Below the pieces are notes generated by a model, which was given only the letters and a program-made list of their open reading frames with translations, searched no databases and was not told the DNA's origin. The position numbers and the translations under genes are program-made. From NCBI GenBank assembly GCA_029289095.1, contig JARFUG010000004.1:13250-77249 (forward strand): a DNA stretch of 64,000 nt, given 5' to 3'. Below, piece after piece: positions 18,237 through 35,936 of the stretch. Every line of letters begins with the position of its first letter. Position 1 is the first letter of the stretch. This DNA is from Desulfuromonadales bacterium (GTDB lineage: Bacteria > Desulfobacterota > Desulfuromonadia > Desulfuromonadales > JACZKF01).

Positions 18237-19271
18237 TCACGCCGCTGCCGCCTTCTCGGCAATGGACGTCACGCACCTCTCCAGACATTCGGGGTCCCCC
18301 CCCTCGATGTCGTTCTTGAGGTGATAGGCCACCGCCGGGCAGCCGCCGTGGCACTGATCGAAGCGCCGGCAGTCCTCGCAGGAATGGATGCGCAATCCGC
18401 GCAGGGAGGCGAAAATTTCCGAATCGTCCCAGATCGCCTGGAAGTCCCTTTCACGCAGAGATCCGGCCTTGAACTGGTCGAGTTGCATGAAGGCACAGGG
18501 GTAGACGTTCCCCGTGGGGCCGACACAGCAGGTCAGCTTGGCGGCTCCGCACAGATTGAGCCCCAGCCCCTGGCGCTCCTGGGCCGTGAGAGAGAAGAAG
18601 CTGTCCCCGGTGCGCACGTCCCCCCGGCTCTCGAGCCAGTTGGAAAAATCGAGGAGCTGCTGAGGCGAAGGGCGCAGGGCTTCCCAGTTGTCGCTGCCGC
18701 GCCCGGAGGGGCGGAAGCGACTGACCCGCAGAGTAACTCCAAGCCTTTCAGCCAGATCGTAGAGGGCCGGAACCTCTGTGGTGTTCTGTGCGGTCAGCAC
18801 CGTGTTGATGCTCGTCGGGATCGGGCTTGCCGCAAGAAGTCGCAGCGCGCGCAGCGCATCGTCATAGGTTCCAGCGCCGCGGATCGCTTCGCAGGTCGCC
18901 TTTTCCGCGCCGTCGAGACTGACCTGAATGGCGACAAGTCGGGTGCGCGAGAGCCTCTCGACCAGACCGGCATCGATGAGCGTCCCGTTGGTCGAGATGC
19001 AGGTCATGATCCCCCGGGCATGGCAGGCATCCAGTATCTCTTCGAAGTCGGTGCGCATGAAGGGCTCCCCGCCGCCGAAATTGATCTGGAACACCCCAAC
19101 CTTGTGCATCTGGTCGACGAGTGAAAGCGCCTCTGCCGTGGAAAGCTCCCCTTCAGCCGGCTCTCCGGAGGAGGAAAGACAGTGCTCGCATCGGAGATTG
19201 CACGCCAGAGTGACTTCCCAGGTCAGGTTCACCGGGGCCCGTAGCCCGGCCTCAACAAATCGGTTGCTCAC
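18237..19271 (-). CDS. mftC: Mycofactocin radical SAM maturase (SPASM domain)
   Basis: 344 aa. VNLTWEVTLACNLRCEHCLSSSG radical-SAM cluster motif. C-terminal Cys-rich SPASM region CGAAKLTCCVGPTGNVYPC...CEDCRRFDQCHGGCPA. Overlaps mftB by 20 nt. Confidence 0.93.
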   Translation of the reverse strand: MSNRFVEAGLRAPVNLTWEVTLACNLRCEHCLSSSGEPAEGELSTAEALSLVDQMHKVGVFQINFGGGEPFMRTDFEEILDACHARGIMTCISTNGTLIDAGLVERLSRTRLVAIQVSLDGAEKATCEAIRGAGTYDDALRALRLLAASPIPTSINTVLTAQNTTEVPALYDLAERLGVTLRVSRFRPSGRGSDNWEALRPSPQQLLDFSNWLESRGDVRTGDSFFSLTAQERQGLGLNLCGAAKLTCCVGPTGNVYPCAFMQLDQFKAGSLRERDFQAIWDDSEIFASLRGLRIHSCEDCRRFDQCHGGCPAVAYHLKNDIEGGDPECLERCVTSIAEKAAAA

Positions 19272-19509
19272 GGAGAAAACCCTTTTCTATAAGTTGCGCC
19301 AGGAAACTGCGCAACGTGTTCTTTTGCCGTTCCGAAAGCCCCTCGGGAAACTCGTCTTTGCGACGGACCGTCCCGAAGAAGTCGGCGGGAAGAAGGCTGC
19401 CGGTTTCGGCGAAGAGAAGGCGCGGCCCCCTGGAATCGTAAAACAGGAGGCCGAACCCTTCTTGCCTCACGCGGCAGGCCGGGTGCAGCTTGATGCCTGC
19501 CGCCGCCAT
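19252..19509 (-). CDS. mftB: Mycofactocin precursor-binding chaperone (PqqD/RRE-like)
   Basis: 85 aa. HPACRVRQEGFGLLFYDSRGPRLLFAET resembles the MftB core. Start is 1 nt after the mftA stop. Confidence 0.85.
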   Translation of the reverse strand: MAAAGIKLHPACRVRQEGFGLLFYDSRGPRLLFAETGSLLPADFFGTVRRKDEFPEGLSERQKNTLRSFLAQLIEKGFLREQPIC

Positions 19510-19510
19510 C

Positions 19511-19627
19511 TCAGTAGACCCCGCAGATGCCGTCGATGGCGAGCTCTTCGATCTGGATTTCTTCCAGGATCTGAGGCTCTTCGTTGCAGGTGTCGCAGGT
19601 CTCGTTGATCTGTCTTTCGTTCTCCAT
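19511..19627 (-). CDS. mftA: Mycofactocin precursor peptide
   Basis: 38 aa from the ATG at 19627 (GGAG 8 nt upstream): MENERQINETCDTCNEEPQILEEIQIEELAIDGICGVY. The C-terminal IDG(I/M)CGVY is the MftA hallmark. Confidence 0.9.
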   Translation of the reverse strand: MENERQINETCDTCNEEPQILEEIQIEELAIDGICGVY

Positions 19628-19690
19628 GTGTATCTCCTTCCGTCTGTTGGTTCGGCCCGTGATCAGGCCCTCTTTGGGGAAGTCAATACT

Positions 19691-19705
19691 GCAACCGCAG
19701 TGCCA
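19691..19705 (-). promoter_or_regulatory. Sigma-54 (-24/-12) promoter of the mftA operon
   Basis: Minus strand reads TTCTTGGCACTGCGGTTGCAGT, an exact TGGCAC-N5-TTGC, about 65 nt upstream of the mftA ATG. Confidence 0.75.
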
Positions 19706-19828
19706 AGAATCAAACATTGATTTATTATGTGTTTTAGACAGTTAGCAGATAAAGAACGGAAGCGATCCGGCAAAGCTTGTGGAGAAATTGGACAATGGCG
19801 AATACTCCATTCACTCTCCCTCCTCCCT

Positions 19829-19868
19829 GCAGTGGGGATTTGTTCTACATGCATGGAGATTCTCCCCA
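19829..19868. promoter_or_regulatory. Candidate enhancer (UAS) motif shared with the alcohol dehydrogenase promoter
   Basis: gCAGTGGGGAtttgttctacatgcATGGAGATTctcccca. Both 9-mers (CAGTGGGGA, ATGGAGATT) recur at 26419..26441. Lies 125-165 bp upstream of the sigma-54 promoter. Confidence 0.35.
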
Positions 19869-19999
19869 GTTTCCATAAACCGATGTTCTGTATTTTCAGG
19901 AAAATTCCTTGCGGCGAAATGGAATAAAAAATGCTATCCCTTCCACAGGCCATTCCCCCTTCAGGCCCGGTCGATGAGCCCTTTGCACGGAGTGCCGGC

Positions 20000-20503
20000 A
20001 TGCACGAAAAGAATTCCCACTGTTCATATTGCGGAACCATGTTCCTCGATTTGGACCGCGGCCGGCGCCATTGCAGGTCGTGCGGCAACATATCCTACGT
20101 GAACCCCCTCCCGGTCGCCGTCGTCATCCTCCCCGTCGCCGAGGGCGTCGTCGTCATTCGCAGGAATACCGAACCGCGCAAAGGGACTCTCACCCTTCCT
20201 GGGGGATACATCGATATCGGGGAAACCTGGCAGGAAGCGGCGCGGCGCGAAGCCCTCGAAGAAACTGGAATAGAGGTAGAGGCCGGCCGGATCATTCTCT
20301 ATGATGTCCAGAACGGGTTCGACGACACTCTGGTCATTTTCGGTCTTGCGCCGAAGCAGTCCGGAGATGTCCTCAAGCCGTTCAGCTCGGAAGAGACGCA
20401 GGAAGTTTTGCTGATCGAAGCGCCGATCGAGCTCGGGTTTCCGATGCACAGCCAAGTGGTGGAACGATATTTTGCGGAAAGGGAGGCTGGCGAGGGGCAC
20501 TAG
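20000..20503 (+). CDS. NUDIX hydrolase with N-terminal zinc-ribbon (NudC-like layout)
   Basis: ATG at 20000 ([12 protein letters not shown]...RHCRSCG gives CxxC-x13-CxxC). Nudix box [24 protein letters not shown]. Divergent from mftA. Confidence 0.8.
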
Positions 20504-20506
20504 ACC

Positions 20507-22414
20507 CTATTCCCCGCAGGCCGGCAGCATCACGGTAAACTCCGACCCCTCGCCGACCCTGCTCTCCAGCCGGATCTCCCCTCCGTGCCGCTTTACGATG
20601 TTGTAGGAGATGGCAAGGCCAAGGCCGACTCCTCTGCCGACTTCCTTGGTCGTGAAGAACGGCTCCCAGATCCGATCGACAATGTTTTGCGCCATGCCGC
20701 ACCCGTCGTCGCGAATGACGATGGAGATCATTCCCTCGTCGATCTTTTTGGACGTCACTTCCACCGTGCCCGGCCCTTCGAAGGCTTGATGAGCGTTTAC
20801 CAGCAGATTCATGCAGACCTGGCGCAGCCCTGAAGGATCCCCCATCACGCCGGGGAGATTTTTCTCCAGGTTTGTCACAACCCTGATTCGCCTGTAGTTC
20901 GACTGGTATCTGACCAACTCGAGAATTTCCAGCAGCACTGCGTTCATGTCGACCTTGACGGCCAGCCCGTCGGACTTGCGCCCGAAGGTGAGCAGATTGC
21001 CGATAATCCCCTTGCAGCGATAGGACTCTCGGACAATGACCTCAAGATAATGGGGAAAGACATCGAGGCGCGGGTCCTCCTTCAGTGCGGATTCATCGCG
21101 AAAACGGCGCAAAAGCGCTTCGGCAAAACCGGCCACGGAGGTTAGGGGGTTGTTGATCTCGTGTGCAATGCCTGTTGCAAGGACGCCGATGCTCGACATC
21201 TTTTCCGTCTGGATCAGGTGCATCTCCTGGAGGCGCTTTTCCGAGACATCCCTGAAAAAGACGAGAGCCCTGTTCTTTTCTCCCAGGGCATCCTTGATGG
21301 GGGTGGCTGTGATATCCACATAACGGGTCTTGTGACCATCGGCGCGCACGACGAGAGAGGAATCGACCCGCTCTCCCCTGAGAGCTCTCTCGACGGGACA
21401 CTCCAGCGGTTTGGAAGCGCACTCCGGATGAAAGATCTCATGGCAGGGATTGCCGGACCGGGTCTCGGCGGGAAAGAGCTGGGGGCTGATGGCGTTGTGA
21501 TGCTGGATCAGGCCGCTGCTGTCGTAGACCGTGATGCCGTCTCCGATCGAATCGAAGATCGTCTGAAGCTCGTTCGTCTTGTTCCGAAGGTCGACTTCGG
21601 CCTGTTTGCGCTGGGTGATGTCCTGCGTCGTGCCGTAGAGCTTCACGACCTTGCCCGCCGTATTGACCGACGGCTCGACGATGGTGTAGACCCATTTCAG
21701 CGTGCCGTCGCCAAACAGGAGACGGTGCTCGATCTCGTAACTCCTGCCGTGCTCGACTCCCATCCGCAGATGGTCGATGACCATCGGGTGGTCCTCAGGG
21801 TGGACCACCCGAGCGAAAGCTTCCTGGGTCGTTTCTTCCGGTTGCAGCCGCATGATGCGCAGCAGTTCTTCAGAAGCCTTCACCTCGCCCGTCGCGGGAT
21901 TGAAGCTCCATGAACCCACATGCGTCATGGCCTGTGCTTTCGCCAGGTTGTACTCGCTCTCGGCCAGCGCCTTTTCAGCCCTGTTTTTCTCGGTGATGTC
22001 GACGAGAACGGCCAGACACTCCTCGCCCGATTCGGTCGCCATCGCCTCGATGCGCACATGCCGGGGACGCTCGGTCGCAAGCTGCAGCCTGCAGGTTTCC
22101 TTACCCTCCGACTGGAAAACGGTTCGAAGATAGTTGCCGAAAAGGAAGCGGTCCCGGTCGGCCACGCAATCCTCGAACCTGCGCCCGATCAGCGATTCGC
22201 GCTCCATCCCGAGAAGGCGGACACCGAAAAGGTTTACCGACTGGATGATCCCCTGCCGATCGATGGTGAAGTAGCCCACGGGGGCAAAATCATACAGCAA
22301 GGCAAATTTGTTGCGTGACGCTTCCAACTCCTGCCGTGAGCGGCGCAATTCTTCAATTTTGGATTCGAGTTCGCGCTGGTGGGCGCGTAGTTCACATTTG
22401 GCCTTGCTCGTCAT
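20507..22414 (-). CDS. Cytoplasmic multi-PAS sensor histidine kinase (NtrB-like HisKA + HATPase)
   Basis: Coiled-coil N-terminus, three PAS-like regions, H-box GIAHEINNPLTS, and N/G boxes (LLVNAHQA, DDGCGM, GVGLGL). ATG at 22414 has GGAG upstream. An alternative GTG at 22438 overlaps the VWA stop. Confidence 0.9.
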   Translation of the reverse strand: MTSKAKCELRAHQRELESKIEELRRSRQELEASRNKFALLYDFAPVGYFTIDRQGIIQSVNLFGVRLLGMERESLIGRRFEDCVADRDRFLFGNYLRTVFQSEGKETCRLQLATERPRHVRIEAMATESGEECLAVLVDITEKNRAEKALAESEYNLAKAQAMTHVGSWSFNPATGEVKASEELLRIMRLQPEETTQEAFARVVHPEDHPMVIDHLRMGVEHGRSYEIEHRLLFGDGTLKWVYTIVEPSVNTAGKVVKLYGTTQDITQRKQAEVDLRNKTNELQTIFDSIGDGITVYDSSGLIQHHNAISPQLFPAETRSGNPCHEIFHPECASKPLECPVERALRGERVDSSLVVRADGHKTRYVDITATPIKDALGEKNRALVFFRDVSEKRLQEMHLIQTEKMSSIGVLATGIAHEINNPLTSVAGFAEALLRRFRDESALKEDPRLDVFPHYLEVIVRESYRCKGIIGNLLTFGRKSDGLAVKVDMNAVLLEILELVRYQSNYRRIRVVTNLEKNLPGVMGDPSGLRQVCMNLLVNAHQAFEGPGTVEVTSKKIDEGMISIVIRDDGCGMAQNIVDRIWEPFFTTKEVGRGVGLGLAISYNIVKRHGGEIRLESRVGEGSEFTVMLPACGE

Positions 22415-22434
22415 GCTCACTCCGCTCCGACCTG

Positions 22435-23823
22435 TCACCAGTGCGTACGCCCTTCAGGATCAAGGGCAGGCGCCGCCCCCCCGCCACCGCGCGTGTAGTA
22501 CTCGCGGTAATCGTATGCCTCTTCTTGTTCAACCTTCTTCACCGATCTCATCGACCGGTGCTCCTCCTCGAGATAGATACTGCGGAAAAGGTCTTCGACA
22601 ATCGCGTTCAGCTCCTCGACACTTTTGACGACTTCCACCCTGTCGCACCAGGCGCCGTAAGTCTCGATCACGCAATCGCCCCTCTTCCACAACGAGCGCT
22701 CTTCAGGCGTCAGCCAGAGCATGTATCCTGCCTTGTCTCTCACCTGTTCAAGCACCCAGTCGTTGGTCTTCCCGTAGTTGTTGCGGGCATCGCCGAGGAA
22801 GATGACTGCCGGTCTGCCGCGCAGGTTCTCGAGATACTTCTCCTTGAATTTCAGCAGGACCTTTCCGTAGTCGCTGTTGTCGTCGAGGTTGACGATCTTT
22901 CCGCCGTCGATCTCCTTCATCATCGCGTTGATCGGGGAGTTGGAGAGCATTTCGGTGATCTCCGCCAGTTCCGCGTTGAAAATGAAGCTCCTTACATCCA
23001 TCATCCGATTGTGCAGCGTGTGCAGCAGAAGGAGCATGAACTTCGAAGCGTGGCTGACGGAGAAGCTCACGTCGCACAGAACGACGAGACGCGGCTTCTG
23101 CTTGCGTTTGCGGCGCAGTTCGAGCAGAAAGGGCACCATGCCGTTGCGGTAGTTCTTCTGAATCGTGCGGATCACGTGGATCTTGCCGCGGTTCTCGCGG
23201 TTCTTAACCCGCCGGATATCCTTCTTCAGACGCAGGAGCATGCGCGTCACCGCATCCTGCATCGCATCGAGTTCCTGCTGGGAGAAGGTGACGTCGCGCT
23301 TCTGCCCGGCGGAATCCTTGAACGCCATGGTGACGGGATTTTGCGGCATCCGCATCGAGGGCCTGGGCGCCTCCATCGCCCCCTGGTAGTCCTTGAGCTT
23401 TATCTCGATTTCCGAGCCATCGAGCTGATCCAGATCCGTTTCCTTGAGGCTCTGAAGATCCTTCAGATCATTGGGGCTCAGGCCGGCATCGACCCCCGCC
23501 AGCGACATGTTGTCGTTGATCATCTCAGGATTGGTGCCGAGCATCTCCCCTTCCATGCTGATGATCGCTTCTTTCAACAAATCGTCTGGATCAATTCCCA
23601 TGCCGGCAGGGGCTGCGCTGAAGAAGCGATTGAACACTTTCTCGAAGATTGGAATGTCATGAACATTTTTCACCAGCGTCAAACGCAGCAGACTGCTCAC
23701 CTGGCCGCGCCCTTCAAGCCCGCCGTAAGCCAGGGCGCAAACGGCATCGAGGCTCTCCCCCGGAGAGACCCGCAGACCTTCCTTTCTCAGTTCAGCCACA
23801 AAACGCGTGATGACGGTTTCCAT
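22435..23823 (-). CDS. VWA domain protein (CoxE-like)
   Basis: 462 aa. N-terminus FVAELRKEGLRVSPGESLDA and C-terminal VWA block LVVLCDVSFSVS are typical of CoxE-type partners of MoxR ATPases. Confidence 0.85.
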   Translation of the reverse strand: METVITRFVAELRKEGLRVSPGESLDAVCALAYGGLEGRGQVSSLLRLTLVKNVHDIPIFEKVFNRFFSAAPAGMGIDPDDLLKEAIISMEGEMLGTNPEMINDNMSLAGVDAGLSPNDLKDLQSLKETDLDQLDGSEIEIKLKDYQGAMEAPRPSMRMPQNPVTMAFKDSAGQKRDVTFSQQELDAMQDAVTRMLLRLKKDIRRVKNRENRGKIHVIRTIQKNYRNGMVPFLLELRRKRKQKPRLVVLCDVSFSVSHASKFMLLLLHTLHNRMMDVRSFIFNAELAEITEMLSNSPINAMMKEIDGGKIVNLDDNSDYGKVLLKFKEKYLENLRGRPAVIFLGDARNNYGKTNDWVLEQVRDKAGYMLWLTPEERSLWKRGDCVIETYGAWCDRVEVVKSVEELNAIVEDLFRSIYLEEEHRSMRSVKKVEQEEAYDYREYYTRGGGGAAPALDPEGRTHW

Positions 23824-23827
23824 GCGA

Positions 23828-24727
23828 CTAACCCAGTTCCGCCGCCGCCAGTTCTGTCACCTGTTTCAGGTCGGCCTGGTGCTTGGAGATCACACCGACG
23901 GTATTGGCGACCACCTCCGGCGTCAGATTCGTCACGTGCAGGATGGAGAGGACCTCTGCCCAGTCGAGGGTTTCCGATACGCTGGGAGGCTTGCGCAGGT
24001 TGAGTTCACGAACCTTGCGAAGAAAGCCGACCATCTGCTGGGCGAGTTCATCGCAAAGGTCGGGGAACCGGGCGCGAACGATCATCACCTCACGCTCCAT
24101 TTCCGGATAATCGATATAGAGATAGAGGCAGCGGCGCCGAAGGGCGTCAGAGATCATTCGAGTCCCATTGCTGGTGAGGATCGCAAGAGGCTTGTTGTTA
24201 GCTTCGAGTACGCCGAGTTCGGGAATCGAGACCTGAAAATCGCTCAGGCACTCCAGGAGCAGCGCCTCGAATTCGTCATCGGAGCGGTCGATTTCGTCGA
24301 TCAGCAGCACGGACCGTTTCTCCGAAAGGAAGCTGCGCAGCACCGGGCGCTGCACCAGAAAATTCTTCGAAAAAAAGAGGCTCTCCTCGCTTGCCAGACG
24401 ATCGACGGCCTCCCGCAGGTCGGAGGCGCCGCAAAGCTGATTGTCTAGCTGCGTACGCAGCATCTGGGTATAGAGAAGCTGCTTGCCGTACTCCCAATCA
24501 TAGAGAGCCTTGCCTTCGTCTATCCCTTCATAGCACTGCAAGCGCACCAGAGGGAAATCCATGACTTGCGAGAGAGTCTTTGCCAGACCAGTTTTGCCGA
24601 CGCCGGGAGGACCCTCGATCAGGATCGGCTTTTCCATCCGCAGTGCCAGGAAAACCGCCGTAGCAATAGCCTCATCGGCAATGTAGCCCCCGGAGCGGAG
24701 AAGTTCTTTGACTTTGTTTTCGGTCAT
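23828..24727 (-). CDS. MoxR-family AAA+ ATPase (CoxD-like)
   Basis: 299 aa. Walker A ILIEGPPGVGKTGLAK, Walker B VLLIDEIDR, MoxR-type length. Confidence 0.9.
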   Translation of the reverse strand: MTENKVKELLRSGGYIADEAIATAVFLALRMEKPILIEGPPGVGKTGLAKTLSQVMDFPLVRLQCYEGIDEGKALYDWEYGKQLLYTQMLRTQLDNQLCGASDLREAVDRLASEESLFFSKNFLVQRPVLRSFLSEKRSVLLIDEIDRSDDEFEALLLECLSDFQVSIPELGVLEANNKPLAILTSNGTRMISDALRRRCLYLYIDYPEMEREVMIVRARFPDLCDELAQQMVGFLRKVRELNLRKPPSVSETLDWAEVLSILHVTNLTPEVVANTVGVISKHQADLKQVTELAAAELG

Positions 24728-24743
24728 ATGAAAACCTCGTGAT

Positions 24744-24822
24744 GGGTGAGGCGTCAGGAGTGAGGAGAAAAACCTTATTGGTGAAGAGAAAAGCTGTCTC
24801 CTTACTTCTCACTCCTCACCCG
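24744..24822. repeat. Heptamer-built hairpin (GAGGAGT type)
   Basis: gggtgaggcgtcaggagtgaggag ... ctccttacttctcactcctcaccc. Contains a 22-nt block identical (reverse orientation) to 30983..31004. Confidence 0.75.
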
Positions 24823-24823
24823 G

Positions 24824-24864
24824 AAAAAAGCTGGCCCCGGAAATGAACAACTCTCCGGGGCCGG
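24824..24864 (-). terminator. Rho-independent terminator of the alcohol dehydrogenase gene
   Basis: Minus strand gccggccccggagagttgttcatttccggggccagctttttt. Stem GGCCCCGG/CCGGGGCC followed by a T-run. Confidence 0.65.
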
Positions 24865-24889
24865 CAATCGTTACCTCACATTACGGTGA

Positions 24890-26095
24890 CTACATGCAGC
24901 CCTTGAAGACGGCGCGCATATTGTCGAAGCCGATGTCCACGGGATTACCTTCGGAGCAGATGTCGGCGGCGGCGAACTTGGCCAGACCGTCGAGGTCCTT
25001 TTCCTGCAGGCCGAGGTCGGCGAATTTGGTGGTGATCCCGAGATCGTCCTTGAGCTCCTGGATCATGTCGATGAACAACTCGCCGGCCTTGATGTCGGAA
25101 ATATTTCGCGTGTCGATTCCGGCGGCGCGGGCCATCATGGCGAAGCGCTCGGGGCACGCCGGCAGATTGAGGCGGCAGACGTCGACCAGGGCGATGGCGT
25201 TGCACAGGCCGTGGGGAGAGTCGTAAAGACCGCCCATGGCGTGGGCCATCGAGTGGACGATGCCGAGACCGGCGCTGTTGAAACTGTAGGCGGCCGCCAT
25301 CTCGGCCCAGACCATCTGCTCGATGGCCTTGTCGTTGTTGCGGTTGCTCGCAGACTGACGCAGGTTGGCGAAGATCTCGGTGATCGCCCAGAGGCCGGGG
25401 CCGTAAGCCGACTGCACGCACAGGCGCGATGCGATCGCTTCGACGGCGTGGGTCAGGGCGTCCATCCCGGTGTAGGCGGCGAGATCGCTCGGCATGCACT
25501 GGTGGAGCAGGGGGTCGTTGACCGACTTGCTCGGTGTGCAATTGGGATCGAAAAGGGCCATCTTGTACATCTTCTCGGTGTGGTTGATGATCGAGAAGCA
25601 CGAAATCTCCGAACCGGTTCCCGAGGTGGTGTTGATGGCGAGTTGGGGGATCTTGTTCTTCTTCGTTGCCTTAAAGGCGCCTTCGAAGGAGCGGACATCC
25701 TGTCCGTCGTGGCTGTAGACGAGCTTGATCGCCTTGGCGCAGTCGGTGGTGCTGCCGCCCCCGATGCTGATGATGCCGTCGAATTTTCCGGAGGCCAGGA
25801 CCTTGGCCCCTTCCATGACTTCATAGTCTTTGGGGTTGGGCGTTGCCTTGTCGAACACCTCGGAAGCCACCCCTGCGTGCTTCAGAACCCCCTGGATCGC
25901 CTCGATAATGCCGGTCCCCTTCAGGCCGGTGGTGACGATCAGGGCATTGGTCATCCCCAGCGCCTTGGCGTCGTTGCCGACCATCGTGTGAGCACCCCAG
26001 CCGATATTGACTGAAGGATAGGCGTGCTGCATCCGGATAGGGTATTCCTGCCTTTCGAGCTTGAGGGTCCGTTTTGCGTCTCTGAAATGTGGCAT
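24890..26095 (-). CDS. Iron-containing (group III) alcohol dehydrogenase
   Basis: 401 aa. GGGSTTDCAKA and metal-binding His blocks (DALTHAVEA, VHSMAHAMGG). Strong RBS GAAGGAGG before the ATG at 26095, giving a ~21-aa N-terminal extension relative to typical family members. Confidence 0.93.
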   Translation of the reverse strand: MPHFRDAKRTLKLERQEYPIRMQHAYPSVNIGWGAHTMVGNDAKALGMTNALIVTTGLKGTGIIEAIQGVLKHAGVASEVFDKATPNPKDYEVMEGAKVLASGKFDGIISIGGGSTTDCAKAIKLVYSHDGQDVRSFEGAFKATKKNKIPQLAINTTSGTGSEISCFSIINHTEKMYKMALFDPNCTPSKSVNDPLLHQCMPSDLAAYTGMDALTHAVEAIASRLCVQSAYGPGLWAITEIFANLRQSASNRNNDKAIEQMVWAEMAAAYSFNSAGLGIVHSMAHAMGGLYDSPHGLCNAIALVDVCRLNLPACPERFAMMARAAGIDTRNISDIKAGELFIDMIQELKDDLGITTKFADLGLQEKDLDGLAKFAAADICSEGNPVDIGFDNMRAVFKGCM

Positions 26096-26284
26096 CTGTA
26101 CTTACCTCCTTCTGTGTGGGTGCTTTGGGTTGGATTGCACTTGCATCGACCATCGGGCGCCAGAACTAGCCTTCGTTTCCGACCACCACCTCCTTGCAAC
26201 AATGTTTTAAGCAGCCCCTTCAGTCGTAGAAGAATGAATTCCTGAAATGACCGCGCCTTTCTTCACATCGTGTCAACGGATAGA

Positions 26285-26299
26285 GCAAGGAGAGTGCCA
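26285..26299 (-). promoter_or_regulatory. Sigma-54 (-24/-12) promoter of the alcohol dehydrogenase gene
   Basis: Minus strand TTCTTGGCACTCTCCTTGCTCT, an exact TGGCAC-N5-TTGC. It shares the 11-nt TTCTTGGCACT with the mftA promoter. About 190 nt upstream of the ATG. Confidence 0.75.
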
Positions 26300-26418
26300 A
26301 GAAAGGAACCTTGGCTATAACGCTATTTTAGGCCATGCGAATGGAGGGACCGCAGGTGGACGGAGGCAGGACGGGGAATTCTGTAACAGTTTTATAAACT
26401 CAAAGCCGTAGAGGAGGT

Positions 26419-26441
26419 ATGGAGATTGTCTACAGTGGGGA
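26419..26441. promoter_or_regulatory. Candidate enhancer (UAS) motif shared with the mftA promoter
   Basis: ATGGAGATTgtctaCAGTGGGGA, 120-140 bp upstream of the sigma-54 promoter. Same two 9-mers as 19829..19868. Confidence 0.35.
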
Positions 26442-26454
26442 ATAAGGAATCAGG

Positions 26455-26628
26455 GCAATTTGAATTTTTGAATTCAGAGATTTGAATTTAAAGGCAAGAA
26501 CCCCCGTCCCGTAGCGCTGCACAGACAAGAGCCGATCGTGGTTGATGGCGCCGAAAGGTTGGATTTCCAGGTGATTTGCTTTTGCTCCAACAATTCAAAT
26601 TTAAAAAATCACAATTCAAAATTGCCTT
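26455..26628. repeat. Pair of inverted TTGAAT-type heptamer tracts flanking a ~95-bp spacer
   Basis: ggcaatttgaatttttgaattcagagatttgaattt (26455-26492) and caattcaaatttaaaaaatcacaattcaaaattgcc (26591-26627) are imperfect reverse complements. They sit just downstream of the ALDH stop. Confidence 0.65.
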
Positions 26629-26629
26629 A

Positions 26630-28120
26630 TTACACGTCCACCTGCGCCCGCTGGAGGCGTCCGCTGAAGTCGCGGTAGACGGTTTTGATGCGGGTGTAGA
26701 AATCGATAGCTCCCATGCGACCGCCGCATTCGGGATGCCCCGATCCCGAATGCCGATAGCCTCCGAAAGGCAACTGAATTTCGGCGCCGATGGTGCTGGC
26801 GTTGATGTAGACCAGGCCGGTGTCGAGCTCTCTTTCGGCACGGGCGCTGAGATTGACGTCGCGGGTGTAAATGGCGGATGAAAGGCCGTAATGGCTGTCA
26901 TTGACGATCTGCACTCCTTCCTCAAAGGAAGAGCAGCGAAGCAACGACACCACTGGGCCGAAAATTTCTTCGCGGGCGATGCGCATCTGCGGCTCAACTT
27001 CGGAAAAGAGTGTCGGTGCGATGAAATATCCATGCTCAAGCTCGCCTTCGGTTACCTGCATTCCTCCGGTATGCAGCTTCGCCCCCTCCTCCTCGCCGAT
27101 ACGGATATATTCAAGGACCTTTTTCACGGCGGGCTCGTTGATGACTGGTCCGATCTTCGTCTCCTCCTCCAGGCCGTCGCCGAGCCGCAGGGGCGCGATG
27201 GCCGCTAGGAGCATCTCGAGAAATCGGTCGTGCACATCCTGGTGGACGATGACTCGGCTCGAGGCGGTACAGCGTTGCCCCGAGGTGCCGAATCCGCCCC
27301 AGAGAACCCCTTCCACCGCGAGATCCAGGTCGGCGTCGGGCATGATGAGGATGGCGTTCTTTCCCCCCATCTCCACGGCGATGGGGCGGTGAAGCTCGGC
27401 CGCCTTGCGTTCGAGCGCCTCACCGACAGGGCTGGAACCGGTGAAGGAAATCCCTGCCACATCAGGATGGAGGGCGAGCGGCTCGCCGACCGCCCTCCCC
27501 TCCCCCATGACGAGATTCAGAACGCCCGCAGGAAGGCCGGCTTCTTCGAGAATCTCCACCAGGCGCACGGCGCACAGGGGGGAATCGGAGGAAGGTTTGA
27601 GGACAGCGGTGTTGCCGCAGATCAGTGCGGTGAAGACCTTCCACACCGGAATGGCGACAGGAAAATTCCAGGGAGTGATGAGGGCGAAGACCCCGTGGGG
27701 AACGCGGATCGACCTGGCATCCTTGTTCGGCAGCTCGGCCGGGACGACCTCGCTCACCAGACGGCGCCCCTCTCCGGCCATGTAGTAGGCGAAATCGATC
27801 GCCTCCTGCACGTCCCCCTTCCCTTCCGGGAGGACTTTCCCCATCTCCCGGGTGACGAGCCGGCCGAGTTCGTCTTTGCGGCCCCGGAGGGCTTCCGCCG
27901 CCTTGAACAGAATCTCCCCCCGCCGCGGGGCGGGCGTCAGGCGCCAGGGGTCATAGGCCTTTTTCGCAGCGGCGACGGCCCGATCAACATCCTCCCGAGC
28001 CGAGAGAGGAAAACGGGCGACCACATCGGAGATCCGCGCAGGATTAATGCTTTCGCCGTATTCGCCGGTGGAGGGCTCCACCCATTCGCCGCCGATGAAA
28101 TTCCTCAGCAATTCCGCCAT
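26630..28120 (-). CDS. NAD(P)-dependent aldehyde dehydrogenase
   Basis: 496 aa. FIGGEWV N-terminus, catalytic-region blocks [10 protein letters not shown] and [28 protein letters not shown]. Confidence 0.93.
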
Positions 28121-28304
28121 GATCGCCTCCTCTTCCTTGTGGTTTCACCATTTAAGAATATCAGGAGGCGCCTGCGGCGCAATGCTGCGGATTAAGAGAA
28201 AGCCCTTGTTCCGAGAGTGGCGGAGGTGATATAAATCAGGCTCTCCCTGACAATCAGATCTACAGGGACGGAGGGAGACTTTCACCGCCCGTTCGCTCCG
28301 CTCA

Positions 28305-28397
28305 CTCAAGGCGCAAAGTCCGCAAAGAAGAACCTCAGAACTTAGAAGGTTTTCTTTGCGCTCTTCGCGCCTTTGCGGTGAAACGGTTTTTTTCTCA
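28305..28397. repeat. Long imperfect hairpin ending GGTGAAAC + T-run, homologous to 59395..59478
   Basis: ggcgcaaagtccgcaaagaagaacc-loop-ggttttctttgcgctcttcgcgcc, then tttgcGGTGAAACggttttttt. Lies in the divergent ALDH/lpxA intergenic region. Confidence 0.6.
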
Positions 28398-28434
28398 TCA
28401 CCCGCTTTTCAGATCTTTATCCGCAGGAGACCGT

Positions 28435-29226
28435 ATGCCCGAAATTCACCCCAGCGCCTATGTCCACCCCTCGGCCCGCCTAGCCGACGACGTCGTCGTC
28501 GGCCCCAACGCCTTCATCGATGCCGACGTCACCATCGGCAAAGGGACCCGCATCGATCACGGCGCCCATGTCGCGCGCTGGACGACTCTCGGAGAGAACA
28601 ACCGTCTTTACCCGGGCGCGGTCGTCGGCCATGAACCGCAGGACATCGGCTACAAGGGGGAGGAGGCCTACACCGTCATCGGCAACGGCAACATCATCCG
28701 GGAGGGGGTGACGATCCACCGTGGCAATCGTGCCGGAACGACGACGAGCGTCGGCAACAACAATTTCCTCATGGTCAACAGCCACATCGGGCACAACTGC
28801 ATCGTCGGGAACAACGTCATCCTCGTCAACGGCTGCCTGCTCGCAGGGCACGTCGAGATCGGCGACCGAGCGATCATTTCCGGCAATTGCATGATTCACC
28901 AGTTCGTGCGCATCGGCTCGTTCGCCATGATGCGCGGCGGCTCCGGCGCCACCAAGGACGTTCCCCCCTTCTGCATCAACGACGGGCTGAGCTGGATCCG
29001 CGCCATCAACGCCGTCGGTCTCAAGCGCAACGGCTTCGACGCCTGCCGCGTCCGCGCCATCAAGGAAGCCTTCAAAGTCATCTTCCGGGCTGAACTCCCC
29101 TTGAAAGAAGCCCTGGCGAAGGTAGAGAGCGAACTCGACGTCACCGATGACGTCAAAAAGATGCTCGACTTCATCCGCGCCAGCAAACGCGGCATCGGCA
29201 ACGGACGAGGGTCGAATCGGGAGTAG
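28435..29226 (+). CDS. lpxA: Acyl-ACP:UDP-N-acetylglucosamine O-acyltransferase
   Basis: ATG at 28435 (MPEIHPSAYVHPSARLADDVVVGPNAFI). Hexapeptide-repeat left-handed beta-helix plus the LpxA C-terminal helical domain. No other lpx/fabZ genes adjacent. Confidence 0.88.
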   Translation: MPEIHPSAYVHPSARLADDVVVGPNAFIDADVTIGKGTRIDHGAHVARWTTLGENNRLYPGAVVGHEPQDIGYKGEEAYTVIGNGNIIREGVTIHRGNRAGTTTSVGNNNFLMVNSHIGHNCIVGNNVILVNGCLLAGHVEIGDRAIISGNCMIHQFVRIGSFAMMRGGSGATKDVPPFCINDGLSWIRAINAVGLKRNGFDACRVRAIKEAFKVIFRAELPLKEALAKVESELDVTDDVKKMLDFIRASKRGIGNGRGSNRE

Positions 29227-35084: not shown

Positions 35085-35936
35085 TCACCGGTCTCCAAGA
35101 AGGAAACCATTGTCGAGCAGCCGGGTCTTGCCGATGAAGACCGCCAGCAGCAGGACCGAATCTCCGTCGACCCGGTCCTGATCCTGCAGCGTCGCTTGAT
35201 GGCAGATCTTCAGATAATCAATGCGAGCGGCGCTGTGCTGCTCAATGGCAGCGCGCAATACCGCAAGAATTCTGGCGCAATCGTTCTCCCCCTCGCGGGC
35301 CATCCGGCGAGCGGAGGCGAGCGCCTGCGACAAGGCCAGGGCCTGGCGCCGCTCCTCGACCGAGAGATAAACGTTGCGCGAACTCATCGCGAGCCCGTCG
35401 TTTTCCCGAACGATGGGCATGCCGACGATCTCGATCGGAAGGTTCAGATCGGCGCTCATGCGACGGATGACCGCCAACTGCTGAAAATCTTTCTGCCCGA
35501 AGAAGGCGAAATGTGGCTGGACGATATTGAAGAGTTTCGCCACCACCGTCGTCACACCGCGAAAATGTCCAGGTCGGCTCTCTCCGCAGAGGCGCTCCGT
35601 CAGCCCCTCGACGTCGACATAGGTGGAGTACCCTTTGGGATACATCGCGGCGGCTTCGGGGGCGAAGAGGAAATCGACTCCCATGCTGCGGGCCATTTGG
35701 GCATCACGCGTCAGGTCGCGCGGATAGCTTTCGTAATCCTCCCCCACACCGAACTGGGCCGGATTGACGAAAATCGAAAGAACCAGGATATCGGCGCGGC
35801 GCCGCCCCTCCCGCAGAAGAGAGAGATGGCCTTCGTGAAGATACCCCATGGTCGGAACGAAAGAGATCTGCAGCCCGCGCCTGCGCGCCTCGACGCAGCG
35901 CATCTGCATCTCTGAAATATCAGTGATGATTTTCAT
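35085..35936 (-). CDS. panC: Pantoate-beta-alanine ligase
   Basis: 283 aa. [14 protein letters not shown] and FGQKDFQQL motifs. Confidence 0.95.

Follow-up and report, generated by a model that had tools for sequence, protein, structure and literature searches.

The window analyzed here is a 64,000-nucleotide stretch of a Desulfuromonadales bacterium genome (contig JARFUG010000004.1), which carries the gene for a group III iron alcohol dehydrogenase (ADH) and, on the same strand, a mycofactocin operon (mftA, mftB and mftC). The region upstream of the ADH gene, positions 26096-26451 on the minus strand, reads as the control region of the ADH transcription unit, and the explanation that we favour, and consider probable, is a circuit in which one NtrC-type activator drives this unit and the mycofactocin operon from related sigma-54 promoters. 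The two are very probably switched on together, judging from the sequence elements, their conservation, the co-linearity of the control regions, and the phyletic and positional coupling of the activator. The original prediction that they form one regulon is supported by comparative evidence, namely conservation, matrix cross-prediction and a profile hidden Markov model (HMM). Because the shared elements are conserved in related genomes and two 9-mers co-occur only at the two promoters, the likeness is far beyond chance.

Each of the two genes, ADH and mftA, is preceded by an exact sigma-54 promoter element:

26285..26299 (minus strand): ADH -24/-12 element TGGCACTCTCCTTGC, exact match to the consensus TGGCAC-N5-TTGC
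19691..19705 (minus strand): mftA -24/-12 element TGGCACTGCGGTTGC, exact match, 64 nt before the mftA ATG

The minus-strand sequence TTCTTGGCACTCTCCTTGCTCT occupies 26303-26282, with TGGCAC at 26299-26294 and TTGC at 26288-26285; this is the exact element first proposed upstream of ADH, and it is conserved in relatives. The mftA element is the sole other exact match in the window, and the two -24 boxes lie 6,594 bp apart, in agreement with the earlier figure of about 6.5 kb. Both sites have the GG and GC doublets of sigma-54 promoters 10 nt apart within TGGCAC-N5-TTGCW and are co-oriented with their gene. The number of -24/-12 matches in the window is not significant alone (2 found vs 3.07 expected with at most one mismatch, not above shuffles). 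Exact TGGCAC-N5-TTGCW sites number only 10 in the 3.5-Mb genome (3.2 expected from composition), two of them being the ADH and mftA sites. The organism encodes both sigma-54, through one rpoN gene (PF04552), and enhancer-binding proteins, with 31 sigma-54 activators (Sigma54_activat) in the genome and 0 on the window's contig. Sigma-54 promoters of Geobacter sulfurreducens, where rpoN is essential, follow the consensus TTGGCACGGTTTTTGCT (Leang et al. 2009, PMC2725144). Transcription of ADH would start near position 26273.

We compared these promoters in two partly overlapping sets: 81 genomes of the same order, and named assemblies providing 44 loci, 38 from Geobacterales (including Geobacter, Geomonas, Geoanaerobacter, G. 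argillaceus and Geobacter sp. OR-1) and 6 more distant. ADH orthologues (77-96% identical) occur in 14 of the 81 genomes, all 14 of which have mftC downstream on the same contig and strand. The ADH -24/-12 element is kept in 14/14 of these loci, 190-220 nt before the ATG, as well as in 38/38 Geobacterales and 6/6 more distant loci of the second set; over both sets its distance from the ATG is 190-245 nt. Upstream of mftA, TGGCAY-N5-TTGCA lies 65-80 nt from the gene in 13/13 readable loci. In more distant Desulfobacterota, with ADH ~71% identical, mftA, mftB and mftC directly follow ADH; a sigma-54 promoter and an activator gene (a different one, 41% identical) lie upstream, and no sigma-54 site was found between ADH and mftABC. 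There ADH and mftABC look like one transcription unit. Because these distant genomes combine an upstream sigma-54 promoter with joined ADH-mftABC, sigma-54 control of the enzyme-plus-cofactor pair evidently predates the Geobacterales arrangement, which arose when the unit split and its control region was duplicated. Assemblies L089-L092 (Syntrophaceae, Desulfobacterales and Desulfomonilaceae) have adjacent ADH-mftA-mftB-mftC, with hairpin-rich 250-480-nt spacers and no sigma-54 site inside the unit; upstream lie a CGGCAC-N5-TTGCT promoter and another activator.

Upstream of the ADH promoter lie an enhancer and two further boxes:

26416..26451 (minus strand): ADH enhancer (upstream activating sequence, UAS), GATTCCTTAT-TCCCCA-C-TGTAGA-CAATC-TCCATA-CC, holding both shared 9-mers (26419-26441)
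26369..26389 (minus strand): second box CTGTTACAGAATTCCCCGTCC, with one TCCCC half-site, ~60 nt below the enhancer
26306..26331 (minus strand): third-box region CTAAAATAGCGTTATAGCCAAGG, degenerate here, abutting the -24

Sequence blocks had been noted 120-140 bp further upstream of the promoter, and they are found 120-142 nt from the -24 box (26419-26441; plus-strand reading ATGGAGATTgtctaCAGTGGGGA). The two 9-mers are indeed common to both promoters but are not the separate boxes first supposed: they are the second and fourth half-sites, with flanks, of a single composite of ~36 nt. Its consensus cGnGGnGAAATTCCCCAgTGTGGAtAAAnTCCATAgC, from 46 distinct sequences of other genomes, stands upstream of all ADH promoters and consists of four alternating half-sites, cGnGGn-N5-TCCCCA-N-TGTGGA-N5-TCCATA. 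The general scheme TGKRGA-N5-TCYMCA-N-TGKRGA-N5-TCYMCA gives two abutting 17-bp dyads with an NtrC-like 6-N5-6 geometry, and the cleanest palindrome, TGTAGACAAGCTCCCCACTGGGGAGAAAGTCTACA, occurs in L024. In all other ADH loci the enhancer starts 145-179 nt (mostly 167-170) before the -24, and the dyad-symmetric composite of mftA promoters lies 153-166 nt from it, as befits a UAS; this genome's copies are partly degenerate.

With a weight matrix trained solely on ADH enhancers from other genomes, the top score among 7.0 million positions falls on this genome's ADH site, at 30.8 bits; the runner-up, a coding repeat, reaches 15.1. Two other genomic matches (C7:110776 and C31:9410) fall within coding regions and have no sigma-54 site, and were taken as chance. 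A crude half-site count was not discriminating, since 19 sites genome-wide reach at least 19/24, two of them being sites considered here. A looser GG-N10-GC pattern, applied to every locus, was uninformative. The second box appears as cTGTTTCnnAAwTCCCCG in 13/14 of the relatives' ADH promoters first aligned and is possibly a weak third activator site. The third box reads TTTTAAACCAwyGTTT in relatives, IHF-like and partly palindromic. Against the IHF consensus WATCARNNNNTTR (PMC7962754), the relatives' TAAACCAATGTTTTG and this genome's mftA copy AAATCAATGTTTGA have one mismatch each and the ADH copy is degenerate; the position abutting the -24 and the partial palindrome are atypical of IHF sites.

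Directly upstream of the truncated enhancer, 26454-26488 and 26592-26626 form AATTCAAA-rich inverted repeats with 35-nt arms, 74% complementary and 103 nt apart. A 38-nt arm, CAACAATTCAAATTTAAAAAATCACAATTCAAAATTGCC, recurs in at least 10 other places in the genome at 86-89% identity (REP/MITE-like), and these repeats may mark a rearrangement that removed the regulator module.

The control region of mftA is built from the same parts:

19814..19888 (minus strand): mftA upstream elements, with a AGAACATCGGTTTA box at 19875-19888
19850-19869 (minus strand): extra ~20-bp unit CTGGGGAGAATCTCCATGCA, 5' of the canonical left half
19830-19849 (minus strand): canonical left half TGTAGAACAAATCCCCACTG
19814-19829 (minus strand): degenerate right half
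19691..19794 (minus strand): promoter core, with second box TGTCCAATTTCTCCACA (19778-19794), third box ATAATAAATCAATGTTTGATTC (19706-19727) and the -24/-12

In relatives the mftA enhancer has the consensus TGTAGAcAAnnTCCCCAC-TGkGGAgAAAnGCcACA, in the same register as the ADH enhancer, and a counterpart of the second box, TGtCCaaTTTCTCCACA, is conserved across mftA promoters. Both promoter families carry TCCCC or TCTCCACA as a single box ~60 nt below the enhancer and an A/T-rich TAAACCRwyGTTTT box abutting the -24. Genome-wide there are 29 copies of the 9-mer TCCCCACTG and 18 of AATCTCCAT, and the ADH and mftA promoters are the only places where the two stand no more than 40 bp apart, with ~0.012 chance co-occurrences estimated. 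Their order is swapped at mftA because of the extra unit 5' of the left half and the degenerate right half. The match in architecture and blocks that had been claimed holds over the whole ~185-nt region, apart from this swap, which had gone unremarked.

Applied to the relatives' mftA upstream regions, the ADH matrix places its best site 153-166 nt from the -24 in 12/12, with per-position p, the fraction of genomic positions reaching the score, of 1.4e-7 to 1.6e-6. Among all positions of this genome, the extra mftA unit takes sixth place with the right-half matrix. The ADH control region as a whole (206 positions) was also modelled as a profile HMM from 47 genomes, this one left out. The model recovers this genome's ADH promoter with E 4e-17, and its best non-self match in the genome is the mftA promoter (E 0.041), aligned at model positions 99-201, which run from the second box down to the -12. 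The mftA regions of three relatives align with it co-linearly across model positions 17-201, with E 1.7e-7 to 2.6e-5 in a 7-Mb search space. The similarity spans the entire ~185-nt control region, from the enhancer through the second box ~60 nt downstream and the box abutting the -24 to the -24/-12 itself. This co-linear alignment to the ADH profile makes the two control regions homologous from end to end, a duplication being the simplest origin.

The most likely activator, which the original prediction left unnamed, is encoded elsewhere in this genome (G000), on contig C68:

G000:C68:26761-28134: candidate activator, 457 aa, REC/AAA+(GAFTGA)/HTH_8, off the window's contig
C68:28122-29348: PAS histidine kinase of the activator operon
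C68:29332-30495: ErcA-like iron ADH heading the operon (order ADH-like, kinase, activator)
G000:C68:30583-30696 (minus strand): activator-operon promoter region, with sigma-54-like CGGCATGAGAATTGCT and a four-half-site enhancer

The candidate has the domains of an NtrC-type (group I) regulator (Pfam Response_reg, Sigma54_activat, AAA_lid_14 and HTH_8, with GAFTGA from residue 224). It scores under all named NCBIfam cut-offs (AtoC 418.5 vs 714, NtrC 392 vs 559, ZraR 351 vs 760) and by sequence belongs to an unnamed subfamily. Its orthologues (69-76% identical) are present in all 14 of the 81 genomes that carry ADH and mftC and in none of the others (14/14 vs 0/67); the next paralogue in this genome is 44% identical. 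In 13/14 genomes ADH is preceded, at 0.7-3.6 kb and in the same orientation, by the activator gene; the complete genome G063 has a PAS kinase together with an NtrC-type response regulator 2.3 kb upstream of ADH. Among the further Geobacterales of the named assemblies, the activator is present wherever the upstream flank reaches at least about 2 kb, and the usual order is ErcA-like iron ADH, PAS kinase, activator, (MoaA-like), radical-SAM/SPASM, enhancer and promoter, ADH, MadB-like, MadC-like, PAS kinase. The recognition helix LEIDRKTLYTKLERYGL is nearly invariant in 37 orthologues (tblastn) and the preceding linker is variable, which fits a conserved DNA target.

The activator operon itself carries a similar enhancer, here TGGGGA-GTCTT-GCAACA-C-AGTAGA-GGAAA-TGCTCA. 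In this genome and 5 relatives the operon promoters read CGGCAY or GGGCAC-N5-TTGCT, with the four-half-site enhancer 92-136 nt before. A like enhancer next to a sigma-54-like promoter suggests that the operon is positively autoregulated. The ADH-like protein heading it has ErcA (NF041833) as its best NCBIfam match, at 420.4 bits, under the 550 cut-off, and is taken as ErcA-like only by this match and its adjacency to the kinase.

Nearly all relatives encode a radical-SAM/SPASM protein of 375-391 aa, 26-32% identical to MftC, between the activator and the ADH enhancer (L071:3351-4478, L078:3468-4643 and about 30 others), often preceded by enhancer-like sites; in several relatives such sites lie just past the activator gene, ahead of the radical-SAM/SPASM gene. 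In some genomes it is accompanied by MoaA-like and MOSC genes. The protein looks like a second maturase in the regulon, and we found no orthologue of its gene in this genome. At G000:C68:33283-33495 (plus strand), an enhancer-like GGGGTGTAGAAAAACGACACAATGGGGTAATTAC stands ~190 nt upstream of TGGCGC-N5-TTGCT, before a different radical-SAM/SPASM gene (C68:33573-34892, 439 aa); this is a possible further target, 5 kb from the activator. Past the activator stop and upstream of glnB-glnA, a palindrome GTGGAAATATTCCAC (G000:C68:26709-26725) and a TGTGGAAAAACGCC unit (~26628) rank fifth and eighth genome-wide for the right-half matrix, and may represent either a remnant of the ancestral junction or a genuine site.

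From these elements we infer how binding, the inducer and feedback might fit together. Sigma-54 RNA polymerase would sit closed on the -24/-12 element at 26285-26299, and the response regulator, most likely the 457-aa protein, would bind as dimers at the four-half-site enhancer (26416-26451), about 120-165 nt upstream. Once phosphorylated, the activator would assemble into an ATPase ring, loop the DNA and contact sigma-54 so that the complex opens; the conserved A/T-rich box beside the -24 may aid bending. The same activator would bind the mftA enhancer (19814-19869) as well as that in front of the operon encoding it. One signal, probably alcohol, aldehyde or redox state as perceived via the ErcA-like ADH protein and PAS kinase, would thereby raise the dehydrogenase with its MoxR/VWA helpers and PAS kinase, mycofactocin biosynthesis with its electron-transfer chain, and, by positive feedback, the regulator. 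We also lean, with rather less assurance, toward a broader claim: that a self-amplifying, undescribed sigma-54 circuit governs mycofactocin-dependent alcohol oxidation in anaerobic metal reducers, with one NtrC-type activator acting on three or four duplicated, near-identical ~185-nt control regions (those of its own operon, of the radical-SAM/SPASM gene that this genome has lost, of the dehydrogenase unit and of the mft operon).

Several observations weigh against such a common circuit in this genome. No other genome of the set has sites as degenerate: the ADH enhancer is without its first (leftmost) half-site, the sequence being replaced from ~26442, beside the repeat element, and the mftA enhancer is rearranged, its site being weak in the canonical register (-14.4, p 2.3e-5), yet in register. 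The E of 0.041 for the mftA promoter is only marginal. Half-site centres 11, 7 and 11 nt apart are unlike a textbook pair of NtrC sites. The activator is unlinked to the cluster here, on contig C68, and its assignment to these enhancers comes from co-occurrence and position only. Finally, the system could receive input from two kinases, and the responses of the two promoters may therefore differ. Because the sites are so degenerate, their functionality here is inferred from relatives.

One alternative, unlikely but not negligible, is that the circuit is decaying or has been rewired in this genome: a rearrangement would have removed the regulator module and the radical-SAM gene and cut the enhancer, leaving promoters that are perhaps weakly inducible or silent, although the ancestral design was a common regulon. 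This would account for the replaced left quarter of the ADH enhancer, the missing radical-SAM/SPASM gene and enhancer scores that are the lowest of the set (30.8 bits vs 40-64 for most relatives at ADH). Yet neither -24/-12 element departs from consensus, no gene is disrupted, C68 carries the activator, kinase and ErcA-like gene intact with their own promoter, and three of four half-sites are left at each promoter. Improbable too is that both promoters are sigma-54 dependent with related enhancers but answer to different activators or different kinases, which would make "one regulon" too strong. The genome holds 31 activators, and the system includes two PAS kinases, one beside the activator and the other within the ADH operon; between the mftA and ADH enhancers there are systematic differences in the outer half-sites, and the regulator's own operon has a different enhancer-promoter distance (92-136 nt). 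Separate control is hard to square, however, with a single activator orthologue that tracks the ADH/mft distribution, with inner half-sites and all spacings that are alike at both promoters, and with ADH and mftABC that look like one transcription unit in distant relatives. That the upstream similarity is coincidental and the -24/-12 matches are not functional promoters is scarcely credible and effectively refuted by the comparative data, since, for all that neither the window's -24/-12 count nor the crude half-site count is discriminating, position and sequence are conserved in every orthologous locus examined, cross-prediction works between the two promoter families, and the 9-mers co-occur only at these two sites.

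The proposed common circuit resembles NtrC at glnAp2 and the architecture of NtrC, ZraR, AtoC and DctD, with the same REC, GAFTGA AAA+ and Fis-type HTH domains. It shares with NtrC-type systems the dyad-symmetric 17-bp units (6-N5-6), paired 100-170 nt upstream of a GG-N10-GC promoter, and the possible weak third site and bending-protein box, and the activator's best NCBIfam similarity is to AtoC and NtrC. It differs from NtrC, AtoC and ZraR in that no equivalog cut-off is reached, the half-sites are TGKRGA/TCYMCA and the units abut with 1 nt between, and from NtrC-type systems in its targets, an alcohol dehydrogenase and an operon for a cofactor derived from a ribosomally synthesized and post-translationally modified peptide. 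TetR regulators are typically sigma-70-type repressors. MftR (TetR family, TIGR03968; Haft 2011, PMC3023750) of the mycobacterial mft operon is likewise a dedicated mycofactocin regulator beside the cluster, but it is unrelated to sigma-54, whereas positive sigma-54 two-component control, shared with the client dehydrogenase, is proposed here. In Pseudomonas aeruginosa, ErcA/ErcS likewise pair an iron-ADH-like protein with a sensor kinase in the control of ethanol oxidation (Hempel et al. 2013, PMC3754586; Mern et al. 2010; PMC12997753); that cascade ends in LuxR-type regulators (ErbR/AgmR) and pyrroloquinoline quinone enzymes, in contrast to the sigma-54 activator and mycofactocin-linked enzyme considered here.

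Parts of the link were already visible from gene content. Mycofactocin occurs in only some Geobacter species, and a functional link between an iron-ADH clade and mycofactocin was proposed with a SIMBAL peak at TSNPKDYEVH (Haft 2011, PMC3023750); this was a gene-content link, with promoters, enhancer and regulator not given. The ADH of the window carries the NPKDYEV motif, in full NPKDYEVM. In Geobacter pickeringii (Badalamenti & Bond 2015, PMC4358379), mycofactocin genes with a methanol-oxidation cluster upstream of them form the same neighbourhood, which led to the same functional inference, again from gene content only. The G. sulfurreducens study (PMC2725144) gives the same promoter consensus and lists an alcohol dehydrogenase among RpoN-linked genes, but describes no shared enhancer or mycofactocin link. 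A search of the literature library for mycofactocin combined with sigma-54 found nothing. The mechanism is a conventional activator/enhancer/sigma-54 switch; we found no description of the regulon, of its activator or of the duplicated control region.

Known mycofactocin physiology comes, to our knowledge, from aerobic actinobacteria, and the regulon bears on the question of mycofactocin inducers and client enzymes in anaerobes. The shared enhancer and dedicated activator are sequence-level evidence for the Geobacter-group iron ADH as a mycofactocin client. They define a small regulon in which the MoxR/VWA pair, the PAS kinase, an old yellow enzyme (OYE) flavoprotein with its electron-transfer flavoprotein (ETF) chain and the relatives' second radical-SAM enzyme may be treated as one pathway. 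The switch is testable, since it has a single activator and well-delimited half-sites and is present in cultured strains such as G. pickeringii G13, G. uraniireducens Rf4, G. argillaceus and Geobacter sp. OR-1; G. sulfurreducens is not known to carry the cluster. Its value lies in pathway assignment and not in a new principle, the mechanism being textbook. The self-amplifying circuit, if true, would be the first mycofactocin regulatory system outside the actinobacterial TetR repressor and a handle on the timing of cofactor synthesis in anaerobes.

Between the promoter and the ADH gene lies a long leader:

26096..26273 (minus strand): predicted 5' untranslated region (5'-UTR), about 178 nt, with conserved block TTAAAACATTGTTGCAAGGAGGTGGTGG (26183-26210) and Shine-Dalgarno AGGAGG (26105-26110)

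This comes close to the roughly 175 nt originally put forward. Across 48 loci both the leader length (170-210 nt) and a mid-UTR block, TAAAACAAAGTTAT-nAGGAGGTG, are conserved. The block, here at 26183-26210, consists of a small palindrome, TAnAAC-N3-GTTnTA, followed by GGAGGTG, a combination present in about 45 loci. RNAalifold on 17 ADH 5'-UTRs gave no consensus pairs, and thus no evidence for a riboswitch or leader structure; an Rfam scan of 19000-28500 at E up to 1 returned only a chance viral frameshift match inside the aldehyde dehydrogenase (ALDH) gene. The palindrome does not match the HgtR operator (TTGTATACAGTATACTAA, PMC2817479). The block could be a protein operator, a decoy ribosome site or a small-RNA target.

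The genes and other features of the locus are as follows:

26630-28120: ALDH gene
26096-26629 (minus strand): intergenic region between the ALDH and ADH genes
24890..26095 (minus strand): ADH, group III iron alcohol dehydrogenase, 401 aa, ATG at 26095, Pfam Fe-ADH and ADH_Fe_C
24833..24862 (minus strand): terminator-like hairpin and T-run, 28 nt past the ADH stop, ahead of the MoxR-like gene
23828-24727 (minus strand): MoxR/MadB-like AAA+ ATPase, downstream in the ADH unit
22435-23823 (minus strand): VWA/MadC-like protein, downstream in the ADH unit
20507-22438 (minus strand): triple-PAS histidine kinase, downstream in the ADH unit, whose downstream genes span 20507..24727
19511..19627 (minus strand): mftA, 38 aa, C-terminus IDGICGVY, ATG at 19627, variant MftA (NCBIfam 48 vs cut-off 30)
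19252-19509 (minus strand): mftB (NCBIfam MftB 65 vs cut-off 33)
18237-19271 (minus strand): mftC (NCBIfam MftC 358.9 vs cut-off 265)

MftA, MftB and MftC are adjacent and each above its NCBIfam cut-off, which identifies a mycofactocin system. The best NCBIfam family for ADH is the NDMA-dependent methanol dehydrogenase TIGR04266, at 305.6 bits, under the 625 cut-off; ADH is a group III iron ADH closest to this family. The ALDH upstream region (28121-28377) has no sigma-54 promoter and no enhancer, and ALDH was not assigned to the regulon for that reason. The order ADH-MadB-MadC-kinase is kept in relatives. The hairpin after the ADH stop is strong (11 pairs, 8 G-C, then AGCTTTTTTC) and suggests a largely monocistronic ADH transcript with read-through into the downstream genes, implying that the helper genes and kinase are expressed at an attenuated level relative to ADH. 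ADH (24890-26095) is 90-96% identical to its orthologues in 10 other GTDB families of the order; in the same genomes PanC (35085-35936) is 62-76%, the activator 69-76% and MftC 74-88% identical. These differences, together with a same-genus genome (G001) that is without the cluster, points to extreme purifying selection on ADH and patchy inheritance of the cluster.

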